Shown in pieces: positions 3,750 to 11,166 of a DNA stretch of 35,501 nt; position 1 is the stretch's first letter; every line of letters starts with the position of its first letter. Where the stretch lies: positions 1 through 35,501 of the IMG/VR virus record IMGVR_UViG_2534682003_000005, one strand, 5' to 3'. Source of the stretch: a virus. Taxonomy: Duplodnaviria; Heunggongvirae; Uroviricota; Caudoviricetes. The position numbers were made by a program, and so were the translations under genes. The notes beneath the pieces were generated by a model. It saw nothing but the letters and a program-made list of their open reading frames with translations. It searched no databases and was not told the DNA's origin.

Positions 3750-4322
3750 TTATTTAGGTTTCTTCCTACCATAAACAAACACTGTAGTTAATCCTACGAG
3801 ATCTAAAGTAGCAAGAGTACCTGCGAACCAAGTGTTACCGCGATTAGCAAAAAACGCAGCCATTATAAGCACTACCATTGCAATGCAAAATCCCATCCAT
3901 TGCCCACGTTTGTCGCGTGAAACCGCACCAAGTAATGCATCACTTTGCGTCTTATGCCTATGCTCTTGCTCTTTTTCGGTTAGCCTGAAAATTCTCTCAG
4001 CGCCGCCGGGTAATATTTGATTATATTGTAAGAGCATAGCAGGAGGTGGGAGTGGTCCCTGAAAAGACTCCTGCTGAAACATGGCAATAACCTTCGGGTT
4101 CTTAGAAACTCTCTCAAGAAGTTCAGGTGTTAACTTCGATTTTAGCTCAGGATCAAGGTTGGCAACTGCAGACAGCTTTTCCACTACTTCCTGAGACTCA
4201 TCATATTCCGAGGAATCAATATCTTCGTCGATACCATCCGAATCAGGAACGGCTTTTTGCGACGCTTTGTTTTCCTGATGCTTTTTGAGAACGGCCGCCT
4301 GCTTGCGGGGTTTTGAACTCAT
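3750..4322 (-). CDS. Moron: hypothetical protein with acidic N-terminus and two C-terminal transmembrane helices (190 aa)
   Basis: ORF with predicted TM segments (FCIAMVVLIMAAFF, LATLDLVGLTTVFVY); inserted between gpD-like and gpV-like tail genes; followed by its own terminator; looks AT-richer than flanking tail genes by eye; recalls a predicted-membrane-protein DUF family from memory, unverified. Confidence 0.6.
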   Translation of the reverse strand: MSSKPRKQAAVLKKHQENKASQKAVPDSDGIDEDIDSSEYDESQEVVEKLSAVANLDPELKSKLTPELLERVSKNPKVIAMFQQESFQGPLPPPAMLLQYNQILPGGAERIFRLTEKEQEHRHKTQSDALLGAVSRDKRGQWMGFCIAMVVLIMAAFFANRGNTWFAGTLATLDLVGLTTVFVYGRKKPK

Positions 4323-6361: not shown

Positions 6362-6948
6362 TAGCCGCCTCCCAGTAATGACGCCACGTTACCCGTAATG
6401 CTTTTCAGCAGTGAAGTATCTGGAGGCTTTGTGGTTTTGTTGCCGCTGTTCTGTACCGCCGACGTGCTGGCCCCTTCCTTCATGTTGGTTTTATCCGCGA
6501 CGGTAATCTGCTGTGTCCGGGAGATAATGACCTCCCTCAGGGTGAGGACGGCGGACAGGACGTTTTCGGTTGTCTTGTCCGTCGTCACTTCCAGCGCCCG
6601 GATCAACATGTTGCTGTACAGCCGTTTACCGGTTACCACATCGAAGGGGATACGGCTTTCCTGCAGATCCAGTAGCTCCTGATACGTCTGCTGAGGACTC
6701 AGGCCGAGCAGGCTGGTAGCCGTCAGATTACTGGCAAAATCCAGCAATGCGCCGCCACCGGCGAAACCAACCTCCATCACCACTTCTGACGGTTTTTTAT
6801 AGGCATGATCAGCGACAGCGGCCCCGACCTCTACCGGATGCTCTGTTATTTCAAGCATATCTGTATGCTTCTCTGAAATAACAATACTGGGAACAATCAT
6901 TCCTATTTTTCTGCTCTGCTGATGAAAAAGTGTAGAGAGAATATCCAC
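6361..6948 (-). CDS. Tail protein (195 aa), immediately downstream of tape measure
   Basis: Start-stop coupled ORF; position only. Confidence 0.4.
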   Translation of the reverse strand: MDILSTLFHQQSRKIGMIVPSIVISEKHTDMLEITEHPVEVGAAVADHAYKKPSEVVMEVGFAGGGALLDFASNLTATSLLGLSPQQTYQELLDLQESRIPFDVVTGKRLYSNMLIRALEVTTDKTTENVLSAVLTLREVIISRTQQITVADKTNMKEGASTSAVQNSGNKTTKPPDTSLLKSITGNVASLLGGG

Positions 6949-8936
6949 TAACCCACCCTCACCTGATTACTTCGCATGACCTGAGCATTTGCAGACTGTT
7001 GCCGACGTGCAACCTCATTACCGACAGCGTGCGGATCTCCGCCACCGTAAATGTGGTAAGTATTTTGCTGGTTAACCTCTGTCATTTTGCCACTAATTCC
7101 CGCCACGGCAGCCTTATTAATCAGCTCTCGAGAATAGATATTTCTTCCATTTTCATGCTGGATAATGCTGCTCATCAATGCTGACATGGTTTGCGGATCG
7201 CTCATATTCAGGGCAGCCCGGGGATCCACTCCCAGTCGTTGCGATACAGCCCTGATATACGCAGTTGTGTTGTTATTATCAGACGCAGGTGCCCAGGTAG
7301 AGATAATTTTCTCCACACTGTTTATTCCCCGTCCGGCGTACAGCATTAACTGACGAGCAAGAGCCCGTAATCCATCAAAAGCAGTTTCAAATCTGGCAAA
7401 TCGCCCGCCCGGGCGTTCAAGAGAAGCCCCTGCCTGACCAGCAAAATTAAGGTTTCCCGGATTGTTATTCCGTTCTCCTCGTTTCGTAGCCTGTGCATAT
7501 TGTTCCGGCTCATCATCACCAAACCAGCCGCGTACCGTCCGGCCCACACTGCGGGGATCGAATCCCCAGTGCTCTTTAATCCAGTCGGCAGTACTGTTAG
7601 CGCTGTCTGTAACCATCGGCATCGCTGACGGATTTTCGCTGCCCTGATTAAGTATCTGTTTGCCGATGCTGACGGCATCAGCCCAGCGGCCATCTTTGAT
7701 AGCGTTGAGCAGGTCGGCGATCATGTTCAGCATTTTGCTGAATTCGCCCATCTGGTCGATGAAGTTGCTGAAATCCCACTTCAGGGACCATGATTTGGGG
7801 TCAATATTGAGCAGTTTCGCCAGCGCTTTCACCAGTTCATTAACAGACCCTTTCAGGTCACGAACCATCTTCAGCGCGGCATCGACCTCCGGCTTCCACT
7901 TGCCCCAGTCAATCAGGCTGTCGCCGCCTTCCTTCCAGGTCTGATAGTCCTCCCACAGAAGGGCAATCCCCGCCGCCAGCGCGGTAATGAGGCCAATCGG
8001 CGACATCCAGAACGTACTGTTCAGAATGCGCAGCGCAATCGTCAGCGCGCCAAACAGCGAGATGAGCTCCCGCGTTTGCTTATCCAGCGATTGCCACCAG
8101 GTGATAAGGCTGGATGTTCCCTCAATTAGCCTGAAGAACAGCCGCCCGATGATGTCTCCGAGCGCCAGAATGCCTTTTATGGCTTTCGTCAGGGTCTGCT
8201 CGATGCGCGGGAAGTTATCGAGGATGTGGCGGCGCAGTGTGTCCAGCGAACCCGCCAGACCACCAGCAAGATTAGAGCCGATTTTGTCACGGGCCATACC
8301 TGCCATCGCGCCGAACTCGCGCAGGGAGGTCATGAATTTGTTGGAGCTTCTGGCCGCCTCGTCAGCATTGAAGCCGATAGCTTTCGCCATTGCGCTGTAC
8401 TGCCCGGAGAAATCACCCACACCCCGGCGCATCGCCATGAGGGTATTTTCGTCAATGCCCAGCATCTGCGCATACTGGTTAGCCCGGTAATACGGCATGC
8501 TGCTGAGCTTCTGTCCGACACCCGTAAAAATAGCGGCCATGTCGCGCATGTTGCCGCTGGCGTCACGGGTCTGTACGCCCAGGCGATTCAGAAAGCCTTC
8601 TGCACCGGGATTGTTACGAATAAACCGGGAGAGGCTTTCCAGAGAAGATCGCGCAGCGTCCACGCTGCCGCCAATCTGCGAAACCGCATAGCCAATAGAC
8701 TGAATCCCCTGAACCGTCGCGCCGGTGCGCTGTGACGCCCAGTAGAGATTATCCAGACCGGAGGCGATCTTGGCCGTGAAGGCCACCACGGACAGCGCAG
8801 CTCCTTCAACAGCCAGCCCCATTTTGATGACATTTGTAGTTGTACCGGCGAGGACAGAACCGAATTTTTTCGCGCCTGCATCATCCACACTGAAGCCAAG
8901 CGAGACAAGGAAATCTTTAATAGTTTCAGCGTTCAT
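6948..8936 (-). CDS. Tail tape measure protein (about 662 aa from ATG at 8936)
   Basis: Large Ala/Gly-rich, helix-rich protein downstream of the chaperone genes; ATG at 8936 with GGAGAGAGG SD (the ORF track extends to a TTG at 8957). Confidence 0.8.
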   Translation of the reverse strand: MNAETIKDFLVSLGFSVDDAGAKKFGSVLAGTTTNVIKMGLAVEGAALSVVAFTAKIASGLDNLYWASQRTGATVQGIQSIGYAVSQIGGSVDAARSSLESLSRFIRNNPGAEGFLNRLGVQTRDASGNMRDMAAIFTGVGQKLSSMPYYRANQYAQMLGIDENTLMAMRRGVGDFSGQYSAMAKAIGFNADEAARSSNKFMTSLREFGAMAGMARDKIGSNLAGGLAGSLDTLRRHILDNFPRIEQTLTKAIKGILALGDIIGRLFFRLIEGTSSLITWWQSLDKQTRELISLFGALTIALRILNSTFWMSPIGLITALAAGIALLWEDYQTWKEGGDSLIDWGKWKPEVDAALKMVRDLKGSVNELVKALAKLLNIDPKSWSLKWDFSNFIDQMGEFSKMLNMIADLLNAIKDGRWADAVSIGKQILNQGSENPSAMPMVTDSANSTADWIKEHWGFDPRSVGRTVRGWFGDDEPEQYAQATKRGERNNNPGNLNFAGQAGASLERPGGRFARFETAFDGLRALARQLMLYAGRGINSVEKIISTWAPASDNNNTTAYIRAVSQRLGVDPRAALNMSDPQTMSALMSSIIQHENGRNIYSRELINKAAVAGISGKMTEVNQQNTYHIYGGGDPHAVGNEVARRQQSANAQVMRSNQVRVG

Positions 8937-9566
8937 TATCCTCTCTCCATTTCTCAATGCGCCGCTGGTTATCCGCTTTTACCGCCAGATGGTCATTCAA
9001 GAGAGCAATGTCATACAAATCGACAGAGCCATCTTTAAGTGCTGTATAAGGAATTAACCCGGCGTCAACCGGATTGAGAAGGTAGGACAGCCCGTCCGGC
9101 AGGCTGTTAAACGTCAGCCCTGTTGCAGGCTCTGCGTCGTGCTGGTAAGGGGTGTAGGCAAAAAATTTCCCAGCGAATTGGCGACCACCCGCGCCACCAG
9201 CTGCAGCATGGTTAGCAGGTCGATATCATCGAACATCAGCTGACCGCTGTTGAATACCGGCGTCCATCCGTCCATGTGCTTACGTGACACTACGGCCAGG
9301 CAAGGATGAATAATCGCGTTGGTATCTTCTTCAGTCAGGGAAGACAGTTCCTCAGCGATACGCGGGAGCATGGTTTCAAACACCGGTTTTAACTGCTCGA
9401 ATTTCACGGTGTCGATTTTGCCATCAGCAGGCAAACGGGAGCGAATGCTCCCGAAATCTGACATCATTCCTGCCAGCACCGGCAGAAGTTTGCGGATCAC
9501 TTTCAGCTGATCAAAAACGCTGAGTTTTGCCGCGCGATATTTCACGCCTTTGATTTCGAATTCCAT
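8926..9566 (-). CDS. Tail assembly chaperone frameshift fusion (E+E' / G-T-like), made by -1 frameshift at 9159-9165
   Basis: -1 frame is open for 78 codons from the slippery heptamer to a TGA overlapping the tape-measure ATG (ATGAACGCTGA); translated by hand. Confidence 0.55.
9114..9566 (-). CDS. Tail assembly chaperone (E/G-like, 150 aa)
   Basis: Position between tube and tape measure; contains TTTTTTG slippery site near its 3' end. Confidence 0.6.
   Translation of the reverse strand: MEFEIKGVKYRAAKLSVFDQLKVIRKLLPVLAGMMSDFGSIRSRLPADGKIDTVKFEQLKPVFETMLPRIAEELSSLTEEDTNAIIHPCLAVVSRKHMDGWTPVFNSGQLMFDDIDLLTMLQLVARVVANSLGNFLPTPLTSTTQSLQQG
9159..9165 (-). promoter_or_regulatory. Programmed -1 ribosomal frameshift slippery heptamer T_TTT_TTG
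   Basis: Heptamer in the 0 frame of the chaperone gene (codons AAT TTT TTG); same motif as P2 E/E'. Confidence 0.55.
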
Positions 9567-9569
9567 GTA

Positions 9570-10010
9570 TTAAAACTCCCCGAGAACCTGGTCAATCTTG
9601 CCGCAGTCAAACACCCACGGCATCGTATTACCGGTTTTAGCGTTGGCATTATCCGGTTGTTTCTGGAACGCAACACTACGTGCCGTGATGATGTCGCCGC
9701 TGACCTTGTTTCGGATCACAATAACGTTATTCCCCCATGTGGCCGAAGACTGGCTCTGTGCGTTATACGCCAGCGACAATTTTTTATTTGTCGGTGATGT
9801 CTTCAGAAGGTTAACGGTAATCGTCCCGCTTTTATCTGCATGGAGACTGTGCATCACTTCGCCATCAGCACCGATGGTCATGGTGTTTTTAGGACCGCCC
9901 ATCGCAACCACAATCCCCTCTTCAGAACTTGCAGAACCGTACCCGAGGTCAATCGAACCGGTCGGCCCGGTCAGCGTCGCAGTGACATCCATAAAAGAAT
10001 AGGTAGACAT
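9570..10010 (-). CDS. Tail tube protein (146 aa)
   Basis: Size and position between sheath and chaperone. Confidence 0.55.
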   Translation of the reverse strand: MSTYSFMDVTATLTGPTGSIDLGYGSASSEEGIVVAMGGPKNTMTIGADGEVMHSLHADKSGTITVNLLKTSPTNKKLSLAYNAQSQSSATWGNNVIVIRNKVSGDIITARSVAFQKQPDNANAKTGNTMPWVFDCGKIDQVLGEF

Positions 10011-10020
10011 TCACTTCCCC

Positions 10021-11166
10021 TTAGCGAACAACGTTAATCTGTACGTCAGCGTAATGAACCGCGCCTGCAAGTTTTATTGCAGCCTGAATCACCGGAGCCT
10101 TACGGGCTTCACGTTCTGATTGTGCCTGTTCATCCAGCGGCTGGGCGTATACGTAATAACCTTTGGGCAGCGTGTCACCTGATGACAACTGGCCAAGGTC
10201 GCCCCCGTTCCATACGCCCGGAGCAATCAGTCCATTCTGAACGGCCTGATCCAGTGATTTTTCAACATTTGATAACAGTCGGGTAATACCGGCTTCAGTC
10301 TGGGGAACTTTCGTGGTGCTGGTATAAAGCAGGTTATAGAGGTTGGTCTGCACATAATTCTGTAACCAGTCCAGGCCGTGGCGTTCATCAAAGAAATCGC
10401 CGTTAGCCATCACTCCCTGCTGGAGGATAGCTGTATCATTCTGGTAGTACACGAACACATTGCAGTTTTTTGCATCAAGTGCCGATGCCTGGCTGACTGT
10501 CAGTGTTTCATACCCGACACCCGGCTCCTGCTTAAACTTGAGCGTAATCGCGGTATTACTGCCATTGAAATTAACCGTGAATGCCCGGCCAAATGCAGAT
10601 AACGCAGCGTATTTATTACCCGATGAATACTGAATAAAACTGCGTGAATATCCGGCGGTTTTCAGTTTTGATGCCAAATCATCTCTGGATGCAGTCTGCA
10701 GGCATTTCTCATCGCTTGTCGTAATCGCCAGAATACGGCTTACAGAAGAGGATTCGATCGCCGCAGCCACTTTCAGCCAGTCTGCATCCGGAATATCTGC
10801 ATCGTCTGCAATCCCCAGCCCATACCATGAAGTATAATCAAGCATGGCATTCACAGCCTGCTCCAGCGTCTCAGGCGTGGCCTGTTCGCTGTCTCCATTC
10901 GTTTTCATCCAACGACCAACAAAAACCTCCTGAGGTTTCGGTGATTGAGAGAAAAACACCTGCGCAGCCTTATATTCTGGTGATTCCACGCCAAAATCTT
11001 TTCCAATATCTTCCGCGGCAGAATAACGGCGAATGCGCTCACTTACCGGAATGATTGTGGACGGGCCGAGAATGAGTAATGCACCAAAATTTCGCCCTGA
11101 TGCTGCACGCGGCGACATGATCACATCAACATTAACAACGTTTGATACAGGCAAGCCCTGTGCCAT
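10021..11166 (-). CDS. Tail sheath protein (381 aa)
   Basis: Size and position upstream of tube gene in a contractile-tail cluster. Confidence 0.55.

Follow-up and report, generated by a model that had tools for sequence, protein, structure and literature searches.

The programmed frameshift of G/GT-type tail assembly chaperones belongs to a class that was reportedly described by Xu, Hendrix and Duda in 2004. Its members use a single start to make two proteins in a fixed proportion. Tail assembly requires both proteins, and neither is found in virions. Of the two lambda products, the short one binds the tape measure protein and the rare long one has an extra domain that recruits the tube protein; the frameshift works without a strong stimulator (PMC5009743). 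In P2 the sequence TTTTTTG lies a few codons before the stop of E, and E+E′ overlaps the start of T (PMC3091744). True homologues of the Escherichia coli prophage locus analysed here are found in Klebsiella phage Mulock (QFG06717.1, 58% identity to the fusion, with an identical GGGAAATTTTTTG) and in Burkholderia phage Magia (QPB08698.1, approximately 37% identity to the fusion, using C_CCT_TTT). Both have the same two-frame arrangement and carry in GenBank a joined 'tape measure chaperone frameshift product', which is itself a prediction; the frameshift is not mentioned in the Mulock genome announcement. Unlike these two, the E. coli prophage copy was annotated without a frameshift.

Gene order and reading frames in the prophage tail module

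The window, by which we mean the whole 35,501-nt stretch of DNA that was analysed, carries a tail module of the SEN34/Mulock-like myovirus type in a lambdoid E. coli prophage. Pfam and PHROG matches gave the order sheath, tube, chaperone and tape measure along the module, so that the chaperone gene, flanked by the tube gene and the tape measure gene, occupies the position characteristic of the G/GT class. The gene order and the family matches fit a chaperone at this place and uphold the original tail-module annotation. The features are listed below.

9114..9566, minus strand: tail assembly chaperone gene read in the 0 frame; 150-aa short product ('G-like')
9159..9171, minus strand: 13-nt slippery run G_GGA_AAT_TTT_TTG; three overlapping in-phase heptamers
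9114..9158, minus strand: dual-coding overlap; poorly conserved 0-frame end of the short form, where the −1 extension begins
8926..9159, minus strand: −1 frame extension ('T/E′-like' part); 77 codons (9159-8929) and TGA (8928-8926)
8935..9051, minus strand: DUF6889 domain; fusion residues 173-211
6948..8936, minus strand: tape measure protein gene, 662 aa; phrog_2276 'tail length tape measure protein', E 3e-282
9570..10010, minus strand: tail tube gene, adjoining the chaperone gene upstream; Pfam PF11681 (KPP10_Orf10 / Phage_Tube_PhiTE), E 8.8e-61
10021..11166, minus strand: tail sheath gene; Pfam DUF3383 / E217_gp31_N, E 6e-101; phrog_205 'tail sheath', E 1.4e-134
22749-22823: prophage-encoded tRNA-Asn(GUU)

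The recomputed chaperone ORF runs from an ATG at 9566 to a TGA at 9116-9114. Its 0-frame product matched Pfam Phage_TAC_15 (PF21822; E 1.1e-31, 110.5 bits, above the gathering cut-off of 22) and phrog_1688 'tail assembly chaperone' (E 6e-65), and is named 'phage tail assembly chaperone' in RefSeq (WP_000393943.1). The heptamer T_TTT_TTG reported by the first-pass annotation was found at 9165-9159 of the minus strand in the right phase (X_XXY_YYZ), with position 9165 as the third base of a 0-frame codon, so that the 0 frame reads AA[T TTT TTG]. Computational retranslation, which that annotation had recommended, revealed no stop in the −1 frame between 9225 and the TGA at 8928-8926. The open −1 codons number 79 when counted from 9165, 78 from 9162 and 77 when only those new after the slip are considered; the earlier count of 78 is thus right within the counting convention, and the predicted fusion product has 213 aa. 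The overlap between the −1 frame TGA and the tape measure start, also claimed previously, was seen in ATGAACGCTGA (8936-8926), which contains both the ATG and the TGA. This ATG (8936-8934), which gives an 11-nt overlap with the extension, agrees with the RefSeq CDS start; the tape measure ribosome-binding site, GGAGAGAGG, was located at 8948-8940. A promoter and terminator scan of positions 8700-9700 gave no signal above chance.

TTTTTTG had been correctly named as the P2 E/E+E′ slippery site (PMC3091744). As in P2, a T_TTT_TTG heptamer in identical phase lies close to the 3′ end of a short gene that is flanked by the tube gene (FII in P2) and the tape measure gene (T). The two loci are also alike in their local context (...VVGFL in P2 and ...SLGNFL in the prophage) and in the overlap between the end of the long form and the beginning of the tape measure gene, and P2 likewise has no hairpin downstream (PMC3091744). 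However, the products have 91 and 142 aa in P2 and 150 and 213 aa in the prophage, the prophage run has two extra in-phase heptamers, and the prophage tail module, with its DUF3383 sheath, belongs with PB1/E217/KPP10/Pam3 and not with P2. With lambda the locus shares the layout and the presumed logic, and its G_GGA_AAT resembles the lambda G_GGA_AAG, but the A-site codon is AAT instead of AAG, the T domain of lambda (approximately 140 aa) compares with 77 aa in the prophage, and lambda is a siphovirus. No homology to the P2 E+E′ protein was detected by BLASTP (E 36) or by hhalign with a 70-sequence family alignment (probability 0.7%), and none to lambda GT (best BLASTP E 3.2; hhalign probability 0.2%). 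Since there is no homology to the experimentally studied P2 or lambda proteins, position is the only basis of the functional assignment. The 'conserved G/GT and E/E′ arrangement' proposed for this locus therefore stands as far as layout and mechanism are concerned, but does not extend to the sequence family.

The slippery run and conservation of the two frames

The earlier reading overlooked the greater length of the slippery site, which is 13 nt and not one heptamer. The run qualifies as a slippery site through three in-phase heptamers, G_GGA_AAT (9171-9165), A_AAT_TTT (9168-9162) and T_TTT_TTG (9165-9159). The most efficient E. coli motifs of Sharma et al. do not include U_UUU_UUG, and A_AAU_UUU fits their efficient H_HH.U_UU.Y class (PMC4066793); A_AAT_TTT may be equal to TTTTTTG as an E. 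coli shift site. The heptamer alone is unremarkable. TTTTTTG is common in the window, with 17 copies versus 10.2 ± 3.4 expected, as would suit a chance coincidence without function for either the heptamer or the open −1 frame. Among the 53 annotated genes of the window, however, we found 29 in-phase X_XXY_YYZ heptamers with a median open −1 stretch of 10 codons, compared with 79 codons at the chaperone site. At least 50 open −1 codons followed four of the 29, and three of these four are the overlapping heptamers of the chaperone site. Chance is also contradicted by the identity of the extension as a Pfam domain, by the conservation of the arrangement down to approximately 31% identity and by the coding-type substitution pattern in the −1 frame. 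We give such a coincidence almost no credence, and the comparative sequence data have effectively refuted it.

The comparative set consisted of 63 genome or phage loci from other Enterobacterales (48-88% protein identity). The in-phase T6 run was kept in all 63 loci and the full 13-nt run in most of them, and the −1 ORF reached approximately 62 codons past the 0-frame stop. Synonymous variation collapsed precisely at codons 133-136, where GGA AAT TTT TTG was nearly frozen (GGA in 58/63, AAT in 59/59, TTT in 63/63 and TTG in 58/58), and the codon-position entropy of the run was 0.07/0.07/0.23 versus 0.82/0.56/1.43 for the gene body. Three exceptions in the set (L095, L121 and L132) are decayed prophage copies, not counter-examples, and another (L148) is an incomplete contig. 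GGGAAATTTTTTG was present in all 80 of the 80 close IMG/VR relatives. In the overlap 9114..9158 the mean column identity was 0.73 in the −1 frame and 0.50 in the 0 frame, the mean pairwise identity was 0.58 and 0.32, respectively, and the entropy periodicity tracked the −1 register (0.86/0.75/1.38). The entropy of the extension read in the −1 frame (0.74/0.57/1.45) matched that of the chaperone body in the 0 frame. Coding-type conservation of the −1 frame began at the first codon after the slip, and synonymous variation was lowered again in the last eight codons of the extension. What this analysis establishes is the geometry, its conservation and the coding nature of the −1 frame.

Similar layouts were observed at greater distance. 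The fusion protein matched 40 of 40 phage records in two pieces, down to 31% identity, and distant phages (31-40% identity) retained the two-frame layout. An in-phase heptamer was present at the homologous LG(N/P)F position in six of the seven distant phages examined, in the form of C_CCT_TTT, G_GGA_AAT, A_AAT_TTT, T_TTT_TTC or T_TTT_TTT; the Bordetella phage site is G_GGA_AAT and the Burkholderia phages have C_CCT_TTT. These sites bear on transcriptional slippage, in which RNA polymerase would insert an extra U in U6 and so produce an in-frame mRNA for the long form. The prophage site is homopolymeric, one added U would encode an identical protein (GNFFAY...), and T7 DNA or assembly variants that encode an in-frame 213-aa fusion exist. 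However, distant relatives without such a homopolymer keep an in-phase X_XXY_YYZ heptamer (G_GGA_AAT or C_CCT_TTT), a pattern specific to tandem tRNA slippage, and the flanking GGGAAA, which polymerase slippage does not require, is frozen too. A run of six residues is also short for efficient RNA polymerase slippage (see the review PMC5009743). We consider transcriptional slippage very unlikely.

The fusion is colinear with seven proteins of approximately 200 aa (approximately 30% identity), each found on only 1-3 contigs. We set such natural in-frame fusions aside as proof of the long form, as they are perhaps homopolymer errors or mutants. A 213-aa ORF (P0001) was likewise rejected as a natural fusion; it carries T7 in place of T6.

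The DUF6889 extension

The −1 extension matched Pfam DUF6889 (PF21829; E 8.7e-20, 70.6 bits, above the gathering cut-off of 23.9) and, over residues 161-213, phrog_4364 (E 1.3e-22). Comparison with known chaperone extensions, as suggested in the first-pass annotation, gave no match to P2 E+E′ or lambda GT but revealed a conserved domain. Solved structures were searched for by sequence and none was found at E ≤ 1. The AlphaFold model of the fusion had a mean pLDDT of 58, with a disordered linker at residues 133-160, and Foldseek against the PDB with this low-confidence model returned only noise (best E 3.4). DUF6889 was not mentioned in the searchable literature. The likely role of this domain is that of a 'T/E′-like' extension carried by the Phage_TAC_15 chaperones of contractile tails of the PB1/E217/Pam3 type.

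RefSeq/PGAP gives the extension as a stand-alone CDS (WP_071819661.1, 'DUF6889 family protein'), and most database matches to it are stand-alone gene calls of 40-90 aa. The DUF6889 ORF could accordingly be a separate small protein of approximately 54 aa, translated on its own with no recoding. However, the annotated start of the stand-alone CDS is a CTG at position 9090 of the window. The −1 ORF in the window has no ATG or GTG, its only TTG codons are inside the DUF6889 domain, and in 43 of the 63 related loci the −1 ORF has none of these three start codons upstream of the conserved domain. Conservation and −1 periodicity start right after the slip site, approximately 22 codons 5′ of the CTG, and the frozen synonymous sites of the slippery run would be left unexplained by independent translation. 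We regard a separate protein as highly improbable.

Predicted frameshift and annotation of the locus

A search was made for a downstream RNA stimulator, a check on the frameshift that had been proposed earlier. Folds computed from the single sequence over 59 and 99 nt scored no better than those of shuffled sequences (z −0.28 and −0.79), and the first 20 nt 3′ of the heptamer were unpaired. RNAalifold applied to 61 distinct sequences gave an essentially empty consensus (−0.26 kcal/mol), and an Rfam search gave no match. No conserved stimulatory structure was therefore detected by folding, RNAalifold or Rfam, and the conserved hairpin or pseudoknot 5-9 nt past the heptamer that defines dnaX or IS911/IS3-type sites was not found. 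A hairpin approximately 52 nt downstream (CAGCCUGC...GGGCUG) was rejected as a stimulator because it is too distant and not conserved. As an RNA stimulator is apparently unneeded, the frameshift efficiency is presumably a few percent.

Every prediction of the G/GT-type frameshift model that can be computed was supported. On the evidence of sequence we hold with high confidence that translation of the chaperone gene involves programmed −1 ribosomal frameshifting as in lambda G/GT and P2 E/E+E′. Most ribosomes would keep to the 0 frame as far as its stop at 9114 and make the 150-aa chaperone, and a minority would move one base back on G_GGA_AAU_UUU_UUG (9171-9159). The slip would be made by tRNA-Asn/tRNA-Phe on A_AAU_UUU or by tRNA-Phe/tRNA-Leu on U_UUU_UUG. 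After the slip, translation in the −1 frame would add 77 codons before ending at the TGA at 8928-8926, and the resulting 213-aa protein would combine the chaperone N-terminus with a C-terminal DUF6889 domain. The predicted junction peptide is VVANSLGNFLAYTPYQHDAEPATGLTFNSLPDGLSYLLNPVDAGLIPYTALK if the slip occurs on U_UUU_UUG and GNFFAYTPYQ if it occurs on A_AAU_UUU or G_GGA_AAU. Production of the fusion, the proportion of long to short form and the binding partners of the fusion are inferred. If lambda is taken as the model, both forms would bind the tape measure protein, the extension would recruit the tube protein and so start tube polymerisation, and neither form would remain in the virion. 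It is doubtful, though conceivable, that the nearly invariant 13-nt run acts as a composite signal, instead of one heptamer of the P2 kind, in which two or three successive in-phase slips set the short:long ratio without an RNA stimulator and yield two isoforms differing at residue 136 (Phe/Leu); the prophage tRNA-Asn(GUU) might then tune slippage on AAU.

The significance of these results lies mainly in annotation, together with confirmation of the tail-module reading of the window. They add no new biology to the well-established conserved tail-chaperone frameshift, a textbook arrangement of long-tailed phages. The frameshift is already annotated by GenBank in Mulock and Magia, and RefSeq lists the E. 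coli extension as a separate ORF. Hundreds of E. coli genomes carry this 'DUF6889 family protein' CDS with its CTG start, which very probably represents the C-terminal portion of a chaperone produced by frameshifting. Several records of Klebsiella phages mislabel the same ORF as 'NTP pyrophosphohydrolase'.

Reading frames at the chaperone gene

The minus strand of 8700–9800 was read and retranslated. The first-pass annotation had claimed a −1 frameshift at T_TTT_TTG in the tail assembly chaperone gene, and retranslation confirmed this observation: its coordinates and codon arithmetic were correct. The chaperone ORF runs on the minus strand from the ATG at 9566 to the TGA at 9116–9114 and contains TTTTTTG at 9165–9159. 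Since base 9165 is the third position of the 0-frame codon AAT (..GGA AAT TTT TTG CCT..), the 0 frame divides it as T_TTT_TTG, the canonical X_XXY_YYZ phase. No stop interrupts the −1 frame between 9225 and the TGA at 8928–8926, with 79 open codons from 9165 and 77 new ones past the slip, and the conceptual fusion protein has 213 aa. The ATG of the tape measure gene lies at 8936–8934, and ATGAACGCTGA therefore holds both this start and the −1-frame stop. The neighbouring genes belong to a tail module:

10021–11166, minus strand: sheath gene, upstream of the chaperone gene (DUF3383/E217_gp31)
9570–10010, minus strand: tube gene, upstream of the chaperone gene (KPP10_Orf10/Phage_Tube_PhiTE)
9114–9566, minus strand: tail assembly chaperone, 150 aa (Pfam Phage_TAC_15, E 1e-31; phrog_1688 'tail assembly chaperone')
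6948–8936, minus strand: tape measure protein, 662 aa, downstream of the chaperone gene (phrog_2276, E 3e-282)

Genes for Dit-like, Pam3_gp18-like and hub proteins follow further downstream. E. coli MEI1A-0323 has a prophage with 100% identity to the window; it combines a lambdoid early and lysis region with the structural module of a SEN34/Mulock-like myovirus. Among 5,426 complete E. coli genomes, 334 carry the region. In the tape measure protein, the third nearest the C-terminus matches the endolysin/transglycosylase PHROGs phrog_873 and phrog_7182, and relatives carry the annotation 'lytic transglycosylase'; such a tape measure would include its own hydrolase domain for the cell wall. A DUF2335 gene (3750–4322, minus strand; 31180–31752 in the compared locus L237), preceded by a gap of about 325 nt, separates the hub/baseplate genes from the spike gene; the tail module may have gained it as a moron-like insertion.

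The heptamer by itself was not unusual, with 17 copies of TTTTTTG on both strands of the window versus 10.2 ± 3.4 in shuffles. A scan of the 53 annotated window genes (10,305 codons) detected 29 in-phase X_XXY_YYZ heptamers, followed by a median of 10 open −1 codons. At least 50 open codons were found behind only four of them, three of which are the overlapping heptamers of the chaperone slippery site, so it is the combination of an in-phase heptamer with a long open −1 frame that is unusual. An in-phase G_GGA_AAC in the phage N6-adenine methyltransferase gene (about 25129–25135, minus strand; L237 10367–10373) is followed by 100 open −1 codons, into and through ninE; this stretch is probably just ninE itself, which occupies the −1 frame and begins at an ATGA overlap.

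Conservation of the slippery run and coding in the −1 frame

The −1 extension is not junk: it contains a Pfam DUF6889 match at fusion residues 173–211 (E 8.7e-20, 70.6 bits versus a cut-off of 23.9) and a phrog_4364 match at residues 161–213. A comparative scan with one genome per species gave 62 Enterobacterales loci of 48–88% protein identity. Together with four phage loci and the window, and with one truncated contig and three decayed copies left out, these formed a usable set of 63 loci. All 63 had TTTTTT[G/T/C] in phase at the corresponding position, together with a −1 ORF that reached the tape measure start about 62 codons past the 0-frame stop; most had the whole run G_GGA_AAT_TTT_TTG. 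GGGAAATTTTTTG occurred in 80 of 80 close IMG/VR relatives.

The slip codons 133–136 were nearly invariant (GGA 58/63, AAT 59/59, TTT 63/63, TTG 58/58), whereas the alignment's other codons for Phe, Asn, Asp and Leu vary freely (F112, TTC 36 and TTT 27; N191, AAT 38 and AAC 23). Mean entropies at codon positions 1/2/3 were 0.82/0.56/1.43 in the chaperone body (0 frame), 0.07/0.07/0.23 in the slip codons, 0.86/0.75/1.38 in the overlap (9114–9158) read in the −1 frame and 0.74/0.57/1.45 in the extension (−1 frame). The slippery run is thus the exact point at which selection on the protein passes from one frame (0) to the other (−1). Within the overlap the −1 translation was also better conserved than the 0-frame tail, by column identity (0.73 versus 0.50) and by pairwise identity (0.58 versus 0.32). 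Independent initiation of the −1 ORF is argued against by 43 of the 63 loci, which have no ATG, GTG or TTG in it ahead of the conserved domain.

In the linker just past the slip (9130–9158, minus strand) the E. coli clade has AYTPYQHD versus the family consensus ARTPRQRD, three conserved Arg being replaced by Tyr, Tyr and His. Decay of the module (loci L095, L121 and L132) took different forms: the chaperone gene is frameshifted in Apirhabdus, the extension is interrupted by a stop in Enterobacter sp. R1, and a deletion joins the extension to a baseplate-like ORF in Izhakiella australiensis. Rare copies with T7 in place of T6 (locus L007 2082–2723, Logan SRR23924998; E. coli ISC7 CDL28562.1) encode the 213-aa fusion in one frame; each is known from single contigs, and the cause is either a sequencing error in the homopolymer or a spontaneous mutation.

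Slippery heptamers in distant phages and the search for stimulators

A tblastn search with the fusion protein matched 40 phage records, each in two pieces. Seven distant phages (31–40% identity) were read in detail. In all seven a −1 ORF with DUF6889-like sequence continues to the start of the tape measure gene. In six the homologous LG(N/P)F position carries an in-phase heptamer, the exception being Edwardsiella ZHS with only GAT TTT A:

Magia and BgManors32: C_CCT_TTT
Bordetella IFTN9: G_GGA_AAT
Acinetobacter AbTJ: G_GGA_AAT and A_AAT_TTT
Ralstonia phage: G_GGT_TTT and T_TTT_TTC
Providencia PSTCR3: T_TTT_TTT

Exchange of one in-phase heptamer for another is expected from tandem slippage of the ribosome and is not expected from slippage during transcription.

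The slippery run consists of three in-phase heptamers. Sharma et al. place H_HH.U_UU.Y, which covers A_AAU_UUU, U_UUU_UUY and C_CCU_UUU, among the efficient E. coli classes, and U_UUU_UUG and G_GGA_AAU are absent from the best motifs they list (PMC4066793). TTTTTTG is nevertheless the slippery heptamer of P2 (PMC3091744), and we confirmed it in the P2 sequence. Either A_AAU_UUU or U_UUU_UUG, or each of them in turn, may thus be the place of the shift, and residue 136 (Phe or Leu) is all that would distinguish the products. A search for a downstream stimulatory structure found none: the 20 nt past the run were unpaired in the predicted fold, fold energies were unexceptional (z −0.28 and −0.79), an RNAalifold alignment of 61 distinct homologous sequences gave no consensus structure and Rfam had no match. 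This lack agrees with reports on P2 and its relatives (PMC3091744). The prophage also encodes tRNA-Thr(TGT) and tRNA-Asn(GTT) (22668–22823, minus strand), just downstream of the Q antiterminator gene; AAT (Asn) is one codon within the run.

Proposed working, known systems and existing annotation

The sequence analysis shows the geometry, conservation and coding status of the −1 frame, and the interpretation as a frameshift is supported; a low-level programmed −1 ribosomal frameshift giving 150-aa and 213-aa chaperones from one start is the best-supported reading. We infer the synthesis of the fusion, the ratio of the forms and their partners: one start would yield the short form and a rare long form. 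On the lambda model (PMC5009743), the two forms would use their common N-domain to coat the tape measure protein, recruitment of the tube protein would fall to the DUF6889 extension carried by the long one, and both would leave, so that the finished tail would contain neither.

The first-pass annotation had also equated the gene with the G/GT (lambda) and E/E' (P2) arrangement, with TTTTTTG as the P2 site. The likeness in mechanism, and with P2 in the heptamer, held, but homology did not: BLASTP against the lambda and P2 chaperones gave E values of 3 or higher, and hhalign gave probabilities of 0.2% for lambda G/GT and 0.7% for P2 E/E+E'. The AlphaFold model of the fusion (pLDDT 58) was too uncertain for fold comparison, and a sequence search of solved structures found none related. 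Mulock (Klebsiella) and Magia (Burkholderia) share the Phage_TAC_15 plus DUF6889 family with the E. coli copy. Their GenBank records already carry a joined CDS, 'tape measure chaperone frameshift product', and the frameshift in this chaperone family was therefore predicted before; neither the Mulock paper nor the literature that could be searched by Pfam name (Phage_TAC_15, DUF6889) discusses it. The E. coli frameshift is thus an ordinary, well-understood feature and a new predicted case of a known class. Our additions are two small ones: the three heptamers form a 13-nt run whose nucleotide sequence is frozen, and DUF6889 is the probable frameshift extension, mis-annotated in RefSeq as a separate gene. 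RefSeq has the chaperone CDS and a separate 54-aa 'DUF6889 family protein' with a CTG start at 9090, and does not annotate the frameshift. Several Klebsiella prophage records label the homologous −1 ORF 'NTP pyrophosphohydrolase'. Both labels for this ORF (8926–9090, minus strand; 2511–2675 and 2243–2395 in the compared loci L001 and L006) look like artefacts of an unrecognised frameshift.
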